From Escherichia phage FFH2, in sequence record KJ190158: a stretch of 64,000 nt of DNA, one strand, 5' to 3'. Position numbers and translations under genes: made by a program. Below are positions 610-60,999 of the stretch, piece after piece. Position 1 is the stretch's first letter; every line of letters begins with the position of its first letter. Below the pieces are notes generated by a model that saw only the letters and a list, made by a program, of their open reading frames with translations, was not told the origin of the DNA and did not search any database.

Positions 610-1012
610 AGCTGCCTCCTCTTCAAGTTATAGAAAAACTCACTGTATCACTTTGTAACGAGCTTTTCTATCAAACTGGTGCGATTGCATTACCTGGTAT
701 AGTTTATATAGCTGTGGAGCGATTTAGGGGCCTTCTTGTCAGTTTCCACACATAAACTTCATCCAAGCTCGCGCGGGAGACTCTCAACCGACTCCTTACT
801 GCGCTGGCAAGCTTTCGTCGGTGGTCCACATCAGTGCTCGGCCTTTGGCCTGCGCTATCGCTTCGCTCCCACACATGTTAACAGACCTGCATGTATGCAC
901 TTCTGTTATTGTGTGCACCAAGGAGGCCCGGCATCTCGCCCCTCGTAGGCGAGTGCCAATGAAGGGCCGACACTACCTATAGTAAGTAATAATTTTAAAA
1001 CATGGTACTTAG

Positions 1013-1084
1013 GATCTAGTATATTCTACATAAGTTAAGTATATGTACTTAGTATCATAAGTACTAGATCTTTTATTTTTTATT
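1013..1084 (+). terminator. putative intrinsic terminator (nested inverted repeats followed by T-run)
   Basis: gatctagta(1013-1021)/tactagatc(1062-1070) outer stem, inner stem gtactta/taagtac, then ttttattttttatt. Confidence 0.45.
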
Positions 1085-1113
1085 ATTTAGTTATTTTAGT
1101 TATATTCTTTATG

Positions 1114-1172
1114 TGTCCGTATTACGGGCAGATGTGTCCGCGTGACGGACAGTAGTGTCCGTATCACGGACA
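1114..1172. promoter_or_regulatory. three tandem palindromic operator-like sites (TGTCCG-N5-CGGACA) with 21-bp periodicity
   Basis: tgtccgtattacgggca / tgtccgcgtgacggaca / tgtccgtatcacggaca read directly at 1114, 1135, 1156. Confidence 0.5.
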
Positions 1173-39484: not shown

Positions 39485-39506
39485 CAAAATATCAAATTTA
39501 AGACAC

Positions 39507-39535
39507 CTAGGACGCTCTGTGGCGTCCTTTTCTTT
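39507..39535 (+). terminator. intrinsic terminator (GGACGC tctgtg GCGTCC + TTTTCTTT)
   Basis: Read directly. Confidence 0.6.
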
Positions 39536-39844
39536 ATCTGGTGCACGATTGCATACCTTGGGTAGTTAATCTCATTACAGAGCGTTTAAGAGCTCCCTAC
39601 AAACAACTCCATATTTCGAGCGTAGCGAGAACGCACGTCCGTTTTGACCCAAATCACCATACGCTCGGATTTTAACCAAACCCTCGCGGCGTTTCTGTGG
39701 ACACATTACCGATCCAGTGATAGTATCCACACATAGTTTGTAGAATATGGAGTACACAATGAGAACATTGTCCGAAGTTTTAGTGGTGATCCTGATGATC
39801 ATTACGTCCATAGCGGCTGTTGCCGGAATACTCACGGGTGGAAC

Positions 39845-40057
39845 ATGATCAACACACATGCATCTGAAGAGACATCCGAAGGAGTTACCATCTGTCCCTT
39901 GGCTGAGCCAGTGAAAGAGGAAAACTTCGATTCTGAAGATTATCCATCTCCGTCCCAGGTAGATCCTGAGGCTGATGACCTAACGTGGGAAGACATCGTA
40001 GATATCTGGTTCTCTATTATGCCTGAGCACGAAGAGTTCAGGGGTGGTAGACTATGA
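39845..40057 (+). CDS. small acidic protein (70 aa)
   Basis: Start overlaps (ATGA) the stop of a 33-aa hydrophobic mini-ORF at about 39749-39850. Confidence 0.35.
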   Translation: MINTHASEETSEGVTICPLAEPVKEENFDSEDYPSPSQVDPEADDLTWEDIVDIWFSIMPEHEEFRGGRL

Positions 40058-40176
40058 AGCACCGAGCCCACACAGGTTCCTCATACTAAAGCATGGCCTG
40101 AAGAGGCAAACGTGCATAATTCCTGCGCATTTGGACGTATAATCCTGTTCACACTCTCATTTCCAGAGGAGATTTT

Positions 40177-40392
40177 ATGAAGATAGAAATATTTGGTGGA
40201 GCTGACAACACTCGTGGCCTGATTTACCTTGAATTTGATGAATCATACCTGCCAGAGGTGTTAAATATAGACTCTGTTGCTGAGGCTTTGGGAGTAAACC
40301 CTAAAGAACTCCACTCTTGTGCTGAGATCGATGGTTGGGAAGAGACCATGAACATTGATTTCAGTGAAGTAGAGGATGAACCGCTGGACTGA
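40177..40392 (+). CDS. small acidic protein (71 aa; MKIEIFG N-terminus)
   Basis: GGAGA SD; last gene of the rightward block. Confidence 0.4.
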   Translation: MKIEIFGGADNTRGLIYLEFDESYLPEVLNIDSVAEALGVNPKELHSCAEIDGWEETMNIDFSEVEDEPLD

Positions 40393-42805
40393 CACACAAT
40401 TAGCTGCCCGGCTAAAGTGCTGGAAGCACCTATAACACATCTTTCAACTAAATTTCCTACCACCACAATCACTTACCTCCCACACATGACTGTTTGCTTG
40501 TTTAGTGAGCAGTCATGCCTTGACATTCTTGCCTATCCTGATAAAATTAAGTTCTTCTCTTTTCTTTTACCGAGTAATTCGGGTTTTCTGTTCTCTTCGG
40601 TTTGAAGGGGTATAGAGATACACCTGAGTGAACAGGGTGAACAACCGAACATTTGGCTATGGCATTAGCATGGCGAAGCGGACGGGTGACGAAAGAGGGG
40701 CCGGAGGACACCAGTCACTGCCATATGATATATGGGTGATAACCTGAAGAGTCTGAATAAGTGTTTAAGTACCAGTCAGAGGAAAAGGTGAATGGTAGCC
40801 GAAGGGGGAGGGGGGTTTCTTGTATCTTTAATTTGTATATTATGTATACACTTGTAAACCAATCTCATCTGAATTTGTTTACCACACAAAGTGGATAGGG
40901 ACAAATATTACCTATTAAACTTGAATTATTTATAGAAATACCACAACACCACTTAAGTCTTTGATTTTACACACAAATCCTACAGATATTCACCCTCCAT
41001 ATTTAACATACCTGTAACATATTCCATACCCTACCTGACCGATCAATTCACCCAACTACATCCCCATATTTTCCCTGTCTGTACTACCCCTGCCCCGCCG
41101 GGAGTCCCGTCATATCTGGCTTTCCAGCAAATATCACACCCACAAATATCATTGCCTGAAGAGGGTTTCATCCCATAATACATGCCTTACCTGAAGAGCG
41201 CTTCATACACCACGTAAATTTTTTAATTGACCCCCTCCCCGCCGCCGGAGAGGTTGGCTTTTCCCACACAGACCTGAAGAGTCAGCCAGAAATATCTGAA
41301 CAGGTCCAGCTATGCCACGATTTTGTGCTTGTCCTACAGGAGTGCCTCCCTGTCAGGAGCCGGTAGCGACTGGAGTGCTGCCAGGCGGACGAAATGGGAA
41401 TCATTCTCATTCTTATAACAATTCTCAAATATCGAGGCAGTGAGGCAAATTAATAGGTGAGGCCGTTCACACAATGGCACAACATTTGCAACCTATCTTG
41501 TGGGAGTGAATGAGAATACCTATCATTGTGAGAATAGTTATCATTACGGGCAATTTAACATAATACCCATTATGCGCACCACTGGCGATCCATACAGGGA
41601 TTGATAACATGGGTTACTGTTTACACACATAACAATTATATTTCTTACTATTTGTGTGGGATATAGTTAGCAGCCGATAGATTAGATATTGACCTGTAGA
41701 CTTCCAACCGTCCAGACGTCTAAACGCCCACACAACAAGGGTTATACATACACAACTGAATGTAAACAGGGCCGCAAAAATGCTACCATACAAGCTTGTA
41801 AATTTTTCATGCAGCACTTGACAAAGAGGAGGAAAACTTGTCTGACACTTTAGACACAATAGTGACATAATATGACATAATGGTGACACTGAACATAATT
41901 GACATGCCTGACTGTTTACATAGCTAACTATTCATACAGAAATGATAAGCCATGCCATTCGTTTGCATGATAATAATTAACTTGTTTACAATAGATGACA
42001 TAATATAAAAGCAGGGCAACTATTAGAAGATCTATAGTTGCCTTGCTTGTTATGTCATGATTAACTAAATACAAGGCAACTATGATCTGATTAATAGTTT
42101 GCAGACAAACTATCACGGGGGTGATGGTTACTGCTTTTATATTATGTCGCGACTCCGTCGCGCCATGCCATTCGTTTGCATAGTTGCCTTATTGTTACAG
42201 ATAAAATAATTGTATTGTTAATTATTTCTTATCTTTCTCTTAGTCATCTAATGATTCCAGTCAGTATAGTAATGTACAGTAAACATTAGACGACTAAAGA
42301 TTTCTCTGTTTATTATAACTTACCGTGACAATTTCAGGCTGTTTACGAAAAATGTTGACACCTGGGCCGATTTATGTTATGCAGTTTACACGAATAATTA
42401 TTTTATGCAGGTATTGACTATTCCGTTATTCTATGGTTGGAATAAATACTTAGCAGACTATAGAATGGTGAGCGTACGTAAATTCTGAGATCTGGCGGCT
42501 ATAGTTATACTCGATTTTTCACGTAGAACACGCTTTTGTTAGTGTGTAAGTGTATGACTTATAAAGATTTTTAGTTGTTGACAAGATATTGAAGATGTGC
42601 ATCAGGTTAAATTTTGTGCAATAGCGGCATTACGTGCAATTTTGAGAGAGAAAACGGGTAAAAATGGCCTTGCTATCACACAATGAAAAATTATGCAATA
42701 GTTATTTTACATGTATGTTTGTACAGTGTGTGGGATTGATGGCTAGTCAATTATTCCACTTGCCAGGCTGGGCCGTTTGTGGTAGGAGAAATACAGACAA
42801 AAAGA

Positions 42806-57789: not shown

Positions 57790-59016
57790 TTAAAACGGTA
57801 TGTCATCATCAAAGGCGTACTGTGCTGGATTCTGATCCATCGGGTCATCTTCCTCATCATTTACAGGAGGAGCGTCTACAGTGTTTTGCTGTGGAGCTGC
57901 TTCCTGTTTGGCAGCCTGAGGTTCTTGATGGTCAGTTGACCCAGCACCGTTCTTGATCCAATCGTACAACGGCTCAGCCAGATTAGTCAAGACATCTTTT
58001 GCTTCTGCAGTAATTGCCACTGCAAAATCATCAACTTTCGTTTTCTTGTCAATACGGCGACAAGCGTTCAACACCGCATTACCGACACTGGCACCTACTT
58101 CATCTTCAGTTCGGTTGGTGGCTTGAGCATACTCTTTCTTAAGCTCAATGGTGACTACGTGCAGTGTTTTAGCCACTCCCAGTGGGTCGTCTACCTTAAA
58201 CCCGCGATCCAGGATGATCTGCAACGCATTGATGCTATGCCCCGTTTCCACACCGATAGGGTCGTAAGAGGATTTACGCTTGCCACCAGATCCTTGAGTG
58301 CCGTTCTCTGCCTTAGGGGGATAGGCCTTGAAACCACTGATAATGTTTCCGGTGTCTTTGTCAACAATGGCTGCAACACGACCACCTACCACCAGGTCTT
58401 TAAGCTGCTCATCAGTTACAACCATAGCACCTTCGCCAATCTTGTGGTCATTAACAGTAACCACGTTGCCAACAATCTGAGTCACATCACCATAGATGCG
58501 TAAAACGTCCTGATTGGCATTCTGCTGAGGTTTCTGCTTCTGGCCTTGTGATTGTGCACCTTGTTGCTGTTTTTGCTGCTGAGTCGCTGCTGGAGCCTCT
58601 CCTGCACCCAGCTTAACCATCTTAGCCAGTGAGCCCTTGTAATAGGTCTTACCGTTATGCTCGTTTGCCTTCAAAGGGATATTTACGATCCATCCTGGCG
58701 TTACGGTTTCCCACTTGTCATCAATCTTAACAGAGACAGAGTCTTGATGACCTGGTTTAAGCAGCTTATCACCCATGCTGATCCAGACTTCTTCACCACC
58801 TTGAAGCAGGTTATCAGAGGAATCCAGTTCAGAAATCAGTAAAGAGATGGTGTGGCTGGATTCAATTTTCTTACCTTGCCACACAGTGGTTTTAATACCT
58901 GTTGTAGGATCAGCACCTTTAATAGGCTTGATGCTAACACGTTTAATCATGCCGTGAGCTAGTAAAACAGTTTCACGCGGATTCATTGGGTTAGCGAATT
59001 GTTGAATAACGCTCAT
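57790..59016 (-). CDS. putative ssDNA-binding protein with bacterial SSB-like C-terminal tip (DDDIPF)
   Basis: C-terminus ...AFDDDIPF matches the E. coli SSB acidic tip; Gln/Gly-rich linker; sits in the replication cluster near the DNA polymerase. Confidence 0.55.
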   Translation of the reverse strand: MSVIQQFANPMNPRETVLLAHGMIKRVSIKPIKGADPTTGIKTTVWQGKKIESSHTISLLISELDSSDNLLQGGEEVWISMGDKLLKPGHQDSVSVKIDDKWETVTPGWIVNIPLKANEHNGKTYYKGSLAKMVKLGAGEAPAATQQQKQQQGAQSQGQKQKPQQNANQDVLRIYGDVTQIVGNVVTVNDHKIGEGAMVVTDEQLKDLVVGGRVAAIVDKDTGNIISGFKAYPPKAENGTQGSGGKRKSSYDPIGVETGHSINALQIILDRGFKVDDPLGVAKTLHVVTIELKKEYAQATNRTEDEVGASVGNAVLNACRRIDKKTKVDDFAVAITAEAKDVLTNLAEPLYDWIKNGAGSTDHQEPQAAKQEAAPQQNTVDAPPVNDEEDDPMDQNPAQYAFDDDIPF

Positions 59017-59381
59017 TATTTGTCTCCTTGTTCTTCGTTAGTGCTTGCCGTGTGTGCGAACCCTGCTTGAATTAATTTGTCCTGAACTTGAGCCAACAGG
59101 CCCATTGCAAAACTTGTGGTCCCAGAGAGGGCCATCAGCATATCCCGTTGTTGAGCTACCCAACCTAAGGCATAGTCCAAACGACGATATTTTTCTTCTT
59201 CACGCAGAGCCTGAAATAATTGTTCAGCCTCCGGTTGTTGTGTGAGCTCCTGAAGTCTTCCCATGAAAGAAGAAAGCACTAGCAAAAGAGACACTTGATC
59301 TTTACTTAACCCTAAGAAAAATTCTTGAGGTTGTTCTTGCTCGTTCATCGCAACCGACTCTTGATCGTTCATTTGTTCCAT
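59016..59381 (-). CDS. hypothetical protein (121 aa)
   Basis: Start/stop overlap with neighbours. Confidence 0.4.
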   Translation of the reverse strand: MEQMNDQESVAMNEQEQPQEFFLGLSKDQVSLLLVLSSFMGRLQELTQQPEAEQLFQALREEEKYRRLDYALGWVAQQRDMLMALSGTTSFAMGLLAQVQDKLIQAGFAHTASTNEEQGDK

Positions 59382-59464
59382 TATGGAATCTCCGATTTTA
59401 TTTGAACAACATAGAAGGAGACACTATTTTAGCATCCCCTTCTGTAAATTACAATAGGTATTTG

Positions 59465-59710
59465 TTAGCCAATCACTTCGAAAGTTCCCCAATTCCCGTC
59501 CAGCAGGCAGGTGATCGGATCCCCATCGTCGTCAAAGATTTCAAAGTTTTCAGCATCCAGGATGTGGCCCTCGAACACAATACTTTCGTCGCCACCACCA
59601 GAGATAACAGCGTATTCCTTACCTTGAGTCAAGTTTTGACACCCTTTGCCACCAAAACCTACTTCAACACAACGTACTTTCTGTCCTGCGCGAGCAACTA
59701 CTTCAGTCAT
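59465..59710 (-). CDS. hypothetical protein (81 aa)
   Basis: Co-oriented ORF. Confidence 0.35.
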   Translation of the reverse strand: MTEVVARAGQKVRCVEVGFGGKGCQNLTQGKEYAVISGGGDESIVFEGHILDAENFEIFDDDGDPITCLLDGNWGTFEVIG

Positions 59711-59727
59711 CTTAAGGTCTCCTGATA

Positions 59728-60048
59728 TTAATCGTCAAGTTCAAAATAGATTTTAACAGCTTCATCGAAGATTGGAATCCCGATGTTGTTGATAAGCTGC
59801 CAAACTACCATATCTTTACCTGGATCTGGGAGAATGTCAACCTTTCTCCATGCGCTGTATACCCAGTTCGGACCGCCTTCTGCACTAACTGGCAGATTTT
59901 CACCAGCCTCCTGTAGATACTTATACAGCAAAAGATATTCTGGATACTCCAGAACACTGTCCTCTGTAGTATATAGCAGTTCACGGTATACTTTTAAGAA
60001 CCCTGCTGGGGTGATGTTTTCAGTCTTCATTTGCTGCTTCTCCTGCAT
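59728..60048 (-). CDS. hypothetical protein (106 aa)
   Basis: Co-oriented ORF. Confidence 0.4.
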   Translation of the reverse strand: MQEKQQMKTENITPAGFLKVYRELLYTTEDSVLEYPEYLLLYKYLQEAGENLPVSAEGGPNWVYSAWRKVDILPDPGKDMVVWQLINNIGIPIFDEAVKIYFELDD

Positions 60049-60409
60049 TCATCAGATCTGCCATAGCGTCACCCACGAAGAGAACAACCACATCGTTTAC
60101 CGCGTCAGCATCATCTTTGTTGACGTTGCTGAATTTAGGACACACAGCAATAATCATATAGACACCGTTACCCACCTGAACTGTCCGTGTGGTGCACATC
60201 ATGGCGGTATTTGTGCCTTCTTTGAAGGCGAAGCCTTGAAGACGCTCCTCTAGAGTGTTACCGGTAGACTTCAGAAGCGCCAGCTCGTCCAAGGCATAGA
60301 TGATATCTCCGGAAGTTAGTGTTGCCTTGCCATCAGACACCATAATCACTCCATCAGCACCGTCAAGCTTAGAGGCTTCAAAGATATCAATATCCCAAAT
60401 ATTTTTCAT
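60020..60409 (-). CDS. hypothetical protein (129 aa)
   Basis: Co-oriented ORF. Confidence 0.4.
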   Translation of the reverse strand: MKNIWDIDIFEASKLDGADGVIMVSDGKATLTSGDIIYALDELALLKSTGNTLEERLQGFAFKEGTNTAMMCTTRTVQVGNGVYMIIAVCPKFSNVNKDDADAVNDVVVLFVGDAMADLMNAGEAANED

Positions 60410-60741
60410 TACGCTTCCTCGTCGTCTAAGTAATCATCAAGAGAGGTGAAGATTTCACCGAAGTATTCTAAGATTTCTAGCTCACGTGTGGTGCAGCAAA
60501 CATAATCGCCTTGGTCGTCCTTAATAGTGGCCTCTTTACCCAGAATATCTACTTCAAGTTCATCGTTCAACAGGACGGCCCCTGTGTAAACTTTGTCAGC
60601 TGTGCAGTCCCGAAAAGCAGAGTCCTTCTCCAGATAGTCTGGCTTAACCTTGGCTTTAATTCGTTGGTATTGTTTGGTCATTGTTGTGGTCCCCTTTCGT
60701 TTTGATAGGACCATTGTATTAGGTCCTATCGCTGTTGTCAA
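60409..60741 (-). CDS. hypothetical protein, tandem paralogue with 60745..60999
   Basis: KPDYLEKDSAFRDCTADKVY vs KPECVANDRAFKDCTVGAIY. Confidence 0.45.
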   Translation of the reverse strand: MTTAIGPNTMVLSKRKGTTTMTKQYQRIKAKVKPDYLEKDSAFRDCTADKVYTGAVLLNDELEVDILGKEATIKDDQGDYVCCTTRELEILEYFGEIFTSLDDYLDDEEA

Positions 60742-60744
60742 GTA

Positions 60745-60999
60745 TTAATGTTCAGGTTTTACAAAAACGACTTCATTAACAGTGCACCAGACAGAGTCTC
60801 CTTCATCATCTTTAAAGGTAAGGCACTGTGCTGAGTTTTCCAGCTCATCGATCTCTTCTTGTGATAAAGGGGCCCCTTCTTCCAGAAGGGCTTTTACCAG
60901 AGGGTTCTCACAAAACTCTGCTTCATAAATTGCACCGACTGTGCAATCTTTAAAAGCTCGGTCATTTGCAACGCATTCTGGCTTCAAAGTAATTTTCAT
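60745..60999 (-). CDS. hypothetical protein, tandem paralogue with 60409..60741
   Basis: Shared motif and acidic tails. Confidence 0.45.
   Translation of the reverse strand: MKITLKPECVANDRAFKDCTVGAIYEAEFCENPLVKALLEEGAPLSQEEIDELENSAQCLTFKDDEGDSVWCTVNEVVFVKPEH

Follow-up and report, generated by a model that had tools for sequence, protein, structure and literature searches.

A candidate replication-origin module and a modular hairpin element in a non-coding gap of rV5-like coliphages

What is the function of a conserved non-coding gap in which GC-rich hairpins, an AT-rich block, and an array of phased palindromes lie side by side, next to the gene for a small winged-helix protein? The question is raised by Escherichia phage FFH2 (sequence record KJ190158), in which such a gap, 638 bp long (610-1247), separates two minus-strand genes near the start of the 64,000-nucleotide stretch analyzed here (the window). 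The first 3 kb of the window are 96-99% identical to about 115 genomes of the rV5-like coliphages (genus Vequintavirus), and the whole gap is conserved in 117 phage records, at 87-99.5% identity, all of them from this genus. Both flanking proteins, of 116 and 192 residues, are restricted to the genus as well: tblastn against phages and a search of IMG/VR revealed no homologues outside it; a search of 5.8 billion proteins returned only 5 clusters; and an exhaustive HMMER search gave only weak matches to HTH_36 and DUF6945. An earlier reading, made from the sequence alone (the sequence-only reading), had found no credible open reading frame (ORF) in the gap. Comparison supports this view of the gap as non-coding, since the plus-strand ORFs 736-948 and 821-982 are interrupted in relatives by stop codons or a frameshift.

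The answer favored here, with a probability of roughly 45%, is that the AT-rich block and the array (1003-1172), together with gene 1248-1598, constitute a phage replication-origin module of the iteron type, with the palindromes as iterons and the AT-rich block as DNA-unwinding element. Two features expected of such origins are present: multiple phased copies of one site, found nowhere else in the replicon; and an AT-rich stretch beside those sites. Protein binding, origin activity, transcription of the neighboring hairpin element, and a link between its RNA and replication are all inferred from sequence comparison.

Three 17-bp palindromes had been noted at 1114-1172, and are indeed present, starting at 1114, 1135, and 1156, spaced 21 + 21 bp from start to start. 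The first of these dyads (TGTCCGTATTACGGGCA, 1114-1130) has a single arm mismatch (CGGGCA); the second (TGTCCGCGTGACGGACA, 1135-1151) and third (TGTCCGTATCACGGACA, 1156-1172) are perfect. With up to two mismatches allowed, the dyad pattern occurs six times in the window versus 1.24 expected, a count reached by none of 100 shuffled sequences; with no more than one mismatch, only the three clustered sites are found. Extending the search to the remainder of an rV5 genome uncovered no further copy with 0-1 mismatch, and a single two-mismatch site at rV5 124,418 (window 60182).

Comparison with ten relatives shows that dyad copy number varies from two (YN3) through three (A135, as in this window) and four (rV5 and most others) to six (O157 typing phage 14). 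All of them have 21-22-bp spacing and unchanged arms, with differences in the 5-nt spacers (TATCA, TATTA, CGTGA, CGTGG, TCTCA). Invariant arms with variable spacers bear the signature of a protein that recognizes half-sites as a dimer, and of an array that would tolerate unequal recombination, and it is likely that the dyads are protein-binding sites. (The record for phage A141, MG065672.1, has its position 1 adjoining the dyad array, its match ending at about window 1176; the linearization there probably reflects a break in the assembly caused by the repeat, though it may be a physical end.)

Directly beside the array is a stretch (1014-1113) that, at 18% GC, is more AT-rich than any other 100 bp of the window. 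Here the sequence-only reading had described nested inverted repeats followed by a T-run, and these are present: GATCTAGTA (1013-1021) pairs with TACTAGATC (1062-1070), and the T-run TTTTATTTTTTATTA follows on the plus strand (1071-1085). One GATC site lies in each arm, and GTACTTAG motifs are repeated within the block. The distribution of variable sites among 11 genomes sets this region apart: 7 of 110 positions vary in the AT-rich block (0.064 per nt), and the dyads have 0.062 variable sites per nt, versus 0.31-0.33 in the linkers (976-1002 and 1177-1247). No other part of the gap varies as little as the block and the dyads. The further suggestion that the inverted repeat is a compound terminator did not survive analysis: the T-run is there, but the G+C-rich stem that should precede it in an intrinsic terminator is replaced by an AU-rich one (fold -18.8 kcal/mol, z = -1.7), and a terminator scan was empty at this position. 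If the hairpin element upstream is transcribed, the AT-rich block is nonetheless a candidate end point for the transcript.

The obvious candidate to bind the dyads is the winged-helix product of gene 1248-1598, an ORF that had been singled out as a possible regulator; the dyads begin 75 bp past its stop codon, that is, downstream of the gene. The protein matches PHROG 12838, "replication initiation protein" (E = 2.5e-80), and more weakly the initiator PHROGs 8102, 428, and 270, although PHROG labels are names rather than tests of function. It also matches Protein Data Bank entry 4ro3, a hypothetical protein (E = 1.4e-6). Across 117 records, identity of the protein never falls below 88.8% and reaches 95% or more in 115 of them, while the neighboring DNA diverges by up to 13%.

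These observations suggest a model in which dimers of the 116-residue protein would bind the phased dyads. A spacing of 21 bp, equal to two helical turns, would place all sites on one face of the DNA, and the resulting nucleoprotein array could destabilize the adjoining AT-rich block. The T7-like DNA polymerase and the primase-helicase, both encoded by rV5, would then be loaded at the opened block. The hairpin element (about 722-975) would be transcribed toward the block, and its transcript may prime or activate the origin, much as transcripts act at the origins of T7 and T4, or may serve as a specificity or regulatory RNA.

This hairpin element occupies the GC-rich part of the gap and comprises modules K, H, and T (Table 1). 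GC content is 56-58% in 100-nt windows within 751-950, versus 42.7% for the window as a whole, and 770-969 is the most GC-rich 200 nt in the 64 kb. Folding is more stable than that of shuffled sequences on the plus strand (z = -3.4) and on the minus strand (z = -2.7). The sequence-only reading had suggested that this hairpin-dense segment could be a structured non-coding RNA or a leader. The first proposal has gained support, in that both folding and compensatory base pairs point to a structured, conserved element. The second has not: both flanking genes lie on the minus strand, and no plus-strand coding sequence follows the element.

Table 1. Features in and around the gap, in window coordinates; functional assignments are candidates.
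Feature	Position	Strand	Remarks
192-aa ORF	31-609	minus	flanks the gap
Dyad ATAGAAAAACTC-N18-GAGCTTTTCTAT	630-671		12-nt arms; precedes the 192-aa gene; almost unchanged in 10 relatives
Leader motif ATTGCAT-N10-AGTTTAT	684-707	plus	possible promoter or protein site
Box ATTTAGGGGCC	722-732	plus	in plasmid leaders as CCATTTAGGGGGC
Module K	771-875	plus	hairpin, box GGTCCACAT, small hairpins, terminal CCCACACA (868-875)
Hairpin H	870-915	plus	base stem CACACA/TGTGTG
Module T	922-975	plus	outer stem 925-929/964-968; conserved tail GGGCCGACAC
AT-rich block	1003-1112		inverted repeat, GTACTTAG motifs, T-run; candidate DNA-unwinding element
Three 17-bp dyads TGTCCG-N5-CGGACA, 21-bp phasing	1114-1172		candidate iterons, as sites for the winged-helix protein
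116-aa winged-helix protein (rV5 gp075)	1248-1598	minus	candidate dyad binder

The K hairpin consists of a lower stem (779-782/823-826), an upper stem (787-792/817-822), and a 24-nt loop (793-816, TCCTTACTGCGCTGGCAAGCTTTC). Related plasmids, described below, have the same loop save for two positions (columns 32 and 34 of alignment A1). Their stem is different: ACCGAC/GTCGGT in the phages becomes GCTGCC/GGCAGC in the plasmids, so that three pairs are changed on both sides. Across the K alignment 99.3% of cells are paired, compared with 38-74% when the partners are slid, and an A-to-G change in the lower stem preserves pairing, as G-U, on the plus strand only. A covariance model of K gives a single match in each genome, whether phage or plasmid. 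Module T, the least variable section of the GC-rich part, contains an inner hairpin (930-933/954-957 plus 935-940/948-953) whose fold is shared by the phage and plasmid NZ_CP020521 despite changes on both sides of two pairs (G931/C956 to T/A and G938/C950 to T/A). In hairpin H, an 18-nt deletion in rV5 and several other relatives removes the distal portion and keeps the base stem.

The compensatory pairs, three in K and two in T, come from two lineages, together with the plasmid variants P and Y. K and T are very likely real structured elements, and compensatory stem changes argue for a folded single strand rather than a duplex site. The plus strand is indicated by the plasmid terminator, by the G-U pair in K, and by the phage T-run. 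K, H, and T together are probably a plus-strand non-coding element built of hairpin modules, and probably an RNA; the box at 722-732, shared with the plasmid leaders, probably marks its 5' region. The leader motif that lies upstream has two matches in the window versus 0.02 expected, the second being ATTGCAT-N9-AGTTAAT at 39548, and its plasmid version is ATTGCAC-N10-AGTTAAT.

Rfam 15 has no match at gathering threshold to the whole window, to the plasmid array, or to the second non-coding region discussed below; permissive searching of 600-1260 gave chance-level results only (best E = 0.11, 17 bits versus a threshold of 100). ARAGORN identified no tRNA or tmRNA, and no consistent antisense target of the K loop is present in phage or plasmid. 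Among the matches listed by a full-text literature search with RNA-seq and small-RNA terms, none named Vequintavirus. The hairpin-cassette element has no described family and is previously undescribed.

Several more specific structures and mechanisms were considered for this element and rejected. A long-range closing stem (728-738/919-929) is broken in several relatives without compensation. K could also form an H-type pseudoknot (GCGC.GGAG with CTCC..GCGC), but all of its pairs are invariant and hence lend it no support. Processing of the RNase P type ("hairpin plus CCA") at CCCACACA does not fit, since CCA is not in a consistent register with the stems from one cassette to the next. CRISPR-repeat-like and type III toxin-antitoxin readings fail because the hairpins differ among cassettes. 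A separate observation concerns the start of the K loop, CUCCUUA in the phages and CCUCCUU in the plasmids, which corresponds to the anti-Shine-Dalgarno 3' tail of 16S rRNA, whether by coincidence or as a functional mimic.

The plasmids that share this element are circular, 13.2-13.7 kb in length, and come from E. coli; blastn found in them segments 82-85% identical to the GC-rich element, with module K at 82-84%. Of 5426 complete E. coli genomes, 7 contain a member of the family, always outside the chromosome. A metagenome pattern search added two more plasmids and two Vequintavirus contigs, and a 16-mer contig scan returned at least 120 chance matches in unrelated bacteria, the pattern being too short. 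Eight plasmids or contigs were compared; the family includes NZ_CP020521.1, and one of its records is a trimer.

In the plasmids, a leader with a TGCAATTGCA palindrome and the box CCATTTAGGGG (the counterpart of phage ATTTAGGGGCC) precedes two to five small-hairpin cassettes, each closed by CCCACACA; then come a canonical plus-strand terminator and plasmid-specific iterons. The plasmids are otherwise about 94% identical, yet differ in cassette content. Cassettes P and Y are three tandem mini-hairpins, with stems completely exchanged. In three of the eight plasmids the first module is an alternative, K', with another hairpin and loop but followed, like K, by the TCCACAT box; a search of all phage records gave no match to K'.

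The plasmids encode their own major capsid protein along with homologues of three rV5 proteins, namely gp048 (50% identity), gp056 of the neck (45%), and gp049, the tape measure protein (25%), as well as a 303-residue winged-helix protein with weak matches to the replication-initiator PHROGs 428 and 391; no terminase appears in the plasmid annotations. The family has the look of a satellite of rV5-like lytic phages, carried on plasmids and not described before. It lacks the AT-rich block as well as the dyads, and two further short non-coding patches are common to phage and plasmids. The arrangement is parallel: in phage and plasmids alike, hairpin modules on the same strand point at element-specific repeats near a winged-helix gene. 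A broader proposal, doubtful at present, is that K, H, and T and the plasmid cassette arrays represent a new modular class of structured RNA (or single-stranded DNA) at replication origins, which would couple plasmid satellites to their Vequintavirus helper; K and K' would then serve as alternative alleles that set specificity, and elements would exchange the cassettes bounded by CCCACACA.

How well does the proposed origin module stand against the evidence as a whole? A number of points weigh against it. In the DNA, the region contains no DnaA boxes and no IHF core sites; dyad symmetry is no less characteristic of repressor sites than of initiator sites; and the plasmid iterons are direct repeats, not dyads. 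In the protein, the Pfam scores fall just below threshold (DUF6945, 27.1 with a cut-off of 28; HTH_36, 24.5 with a cut-off of 25), RepA_N chains match only at a non-significant E of about 1.2, the 116 residues form a DNA-binding domain only, and a single-sequence AlphaFold model is unusable (predicted local distance difference test score 42). In the hairpin element, the leader motif varies, with many relatives having ATTGCCT; the promoter scan found no promoter for the plus-strand element in the phage; covariation comes from essentially two lineages (phage and plasmid) plus the K' allele; and computation does not separate RNA from folded single-stranded DNA.

The rV5 genome paper sought an origin by skew analysis, with none identified, and noted divergent transcription (PMC3606486). 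In a composite rV5 genome, cumulative GC skew is globally lowest at 66.6 kb, and the array, at 65.1 kb, lies 1.5 kb away; this minimum coincides with divergent transcription, and so is not independent evidence. Moreover, a second large non-coding region, at 39.5-42.8 kb of the window, offers an alternative location for the origin.

That second region (39500-42800, about 104.0-106.6 kb in rV5) is mostly non-coding, with small ORFs, and is unannotated in RefSeq. Besides the second leader motif (39548), it contains CCCACACA at 40067, 40479, 41263, and 41727, along with patches of 24 nt (41410-41433) and 21 nt (41151-41171) that are common to all plasmids. Cumulative GC skew has a local maximum there. 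The region could be another cis-acting center, and it is a candidate for an alternative origin or a pac site.

Among competing explanations for the array, the strongest is that of the sequence-only reading, which saw in the triple palindromes a classic repressor-operator layout. The phased palindromes do look like protein sites, but a classic operator layout is not shown, in that no sigma-70-like promoter overlaps or adjoins them. As generalized here, the winged-helix protein would control transcription from the dyads, as repressor or as roadblock. It might repress a non-canonical promoter in the AT-rich block; it might block minus-strand read-through out of its own operon into the 192-aa gene and the tRNA cluster; or it might block a plus-strand transcript antisense to the winged-helix mRNA. 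The dyad-symmetric sites with their invariant arms suit a dimeric helix-turn-helix protein, and the small helix-turn-helix protein encoded next door has weak GntR-, MarR-, and CodY-like matches. Read-through is plausible too, given that the flanking genes share a strand and that the 192-aa gene has no recognized promoter. However, the promoter scan found no sigma-70-like promoter on either strand of 610-1247 (non-canonical promoters could escape it), and the dyads lie downstream of the regulator gene, away from its promoter. An operator also leaves unexplained both the adjacency to the most AT-rich and most constrained block and the parallel with the plasmid iterons. An origin is favored over an operator because the array adjoins the most AT-rich 100 bp, because it lies downstream rather than upstream of the winged-helix gene, because its copy number ranges from 2 to 6 among relatives, and because the plasmids have a parallel layout beside their own iterons. 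Control of transcription from the dyads is plausible, though less likely than an origin.

A second alternative looks to the relationship between phage and plasmid. K, perhaps with T, would be a signal recognized by a machine encoded by the Vequintavirus, such as the terminase (as a pac site) or a replication or transcription factor, and copied by the plasmids for their own mobilization or activation; the dyads and the AT-rich block could share the region with such a signal. In its favor, the plasmids encode their own capsid protein and homologues of gp048, gp056, and the tape measure protein and have no annotated terminase, and the phage terminase gene lies about 4 kb from the locus. K, the leader motif, and the two short non-coding patches are common to both partners, and no annotated protein shared among the plasmids tracks the K or K' allele, which fits a partner encoded elsewhere. 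On the other hand, three of the eight plasmids have K' (which lacks a phage counterpart) in its place, making K dispensable in cis for the family; the dyads and AT-rich block are both missing from the plasmids; and the compensatory stems point to a folded single strand, not a duplex site. A helper-satellite signal is improbable as the function of this locus.

The dyads and the inverted repeat might instead act at the level of RNA, with no origin at all: the dyads would be hairpins, similar to repetitive extragenic palindromes, at the 3' end of the winged-helix mRNA, where they would stabilize or terminate it, and the AT-rich hairpin with its T-run would terminate a plus-strand small RNA. A 6-bp hairpin can form at each dyad, the dyads start 75 nt past the stop of gene 1248-1598, and the imperfect first dyad (CGGGCA) can pair through G-U on the plus strand, the strand on which the T-run follows the AT-rich hairpin. 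But the dyad arms stay the same from copy to copy and from genome to genome, with no covariation; RNA hairpins provide no rationale for phasing at 21-22 bp; the AT-rich hairpin has little stability (z = -1.7) and goes undetected by the terminator scan; and near-invariance spans 110 nt, unpaired parts included. This explanation is very improbable.

Finally, the RefSeq-annotated rv5_gp074 (56 aa, minus strand, 704-874) is almost certainly not a real protein that accounts for the GC-rich segment: its frame is open in 11 of 11 Vequintavirus sequences (one with an in-frame 3-nt deletion), but about 17 of its 56 residues vary among genomes that differ at only 29 nucleotide positions within it, mostly through non-synonymous substitutions with no sign of purifying selection, its GTG start has no Shine-Dalgarno sequence visible upstream, the homologous frame in the plasmids is different and truncated, and the phage-plasmid differences are paired stem changes that make no sense for a protein. 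Several GenBank records also contain short "hypothetical proteins" (102-nt and 144-nt ORFs, for example) over the equivalents of 704-874 and 1113-1215; these gene calls, drawn across the GC-rich hairpins and the dyad array, are very probably spurious.

Three observations lie apart from the argument. The dyad at 630-671 may be a regulatory site or a hairpin in a 5' untranslated region, and may not belong to the main locus. Eighteen GenBank records in the MG0656xx series are named "Campylobacter phage", although they are 98% identical to E. coli Vequintaviruses, and one of them, A135, is flagged UNVERIFIED; either the host labels are wrong or the preparations were contaminated, probably. Outside the window, at rV5 58027-60872, the gene for the large terminase subunit is interrupted: its annotation joins three segments, and an HNH endonuclease ORF lies within it.

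Together, these results nominate a precise candidate origin and a candidate initiator for the rV5-like phages, whose origin is so far unmapped and which are widely used in typing, biocontrol, and therapy of E. coli O157. They also describe a structured non-coding motif, absent from Rfam, that is common to a lytic phage and to small plasmids. If those plasmids are indeed satellites, the common element would provide a direct handle on how a satellite recognizes or exploits a virulent helper.

Comparison with known systems places the different parts of the locus in different company. In the variable regions of T4-like phages, mobile regulatory cassettes of the PeSL type have short repeated motifs and stem-loops at the boundaries of small interchangeable modules; PeSLs contain an early promoter and border small ORFs. 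The cassettes described here differ from these in being mostly non-coding hairpins, and CCCACACA is not promoter-like; they are similar in that CCCACACA punctuates cassettes of the plasmids and, at 39.7-41.8 kb of the window, those of the phage.

Antisense and immunity RNAs provide a second comparison. ColE1 RNA I, R1 CopA, P4 CI RNA, and P1 C4 RNA share with the K module the combination of covarying stems and a conserved loop, and the K and K' alleles, which occupy the same position, are reminiscent of the specificity determinants of such RNAs. The resemblance stops at the target, as a search of phage and plasmid found no complementary one, and at Rfam, where no match reaches the gathering score.

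The putative transcription unit that points into an AT-rich region recalls origins activated or primed by a transcript, namely the T7 primary origin, T4 oriF and oriG, and ColE1 RNA II. A difference is that the promoter scan here is empty, and neither sequence nor Rfam similarity to RNA II is evident. The DNA polymerase of rV5 is T7-like, and the phage also has a primase-helicase; with ColE1, the locus shares a highly structured putative RNA upstream of the candidate origin.

The closest parallel may be the phage lambda origin, which lies inside the O gene and whose O protein uses a second domain to recruit the helicase loader. The rV5-like arrangement differs: the candidate sites are 75 bp downstream of the gene, the 116-residue protein has a single domain and no evident sequence homology to O, and the origin is a candidate from sequence alone. 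Yet phased sites of 17-19 bp with internal dyad symmetry are a feature of lambda ori, of SPP1 oriL, and of iteron plasmids; and, as in lambda, an AT-rich block with an inverted repeat lies directly beside the presumed sites, which adjoin the gene for a winged-helix protein.

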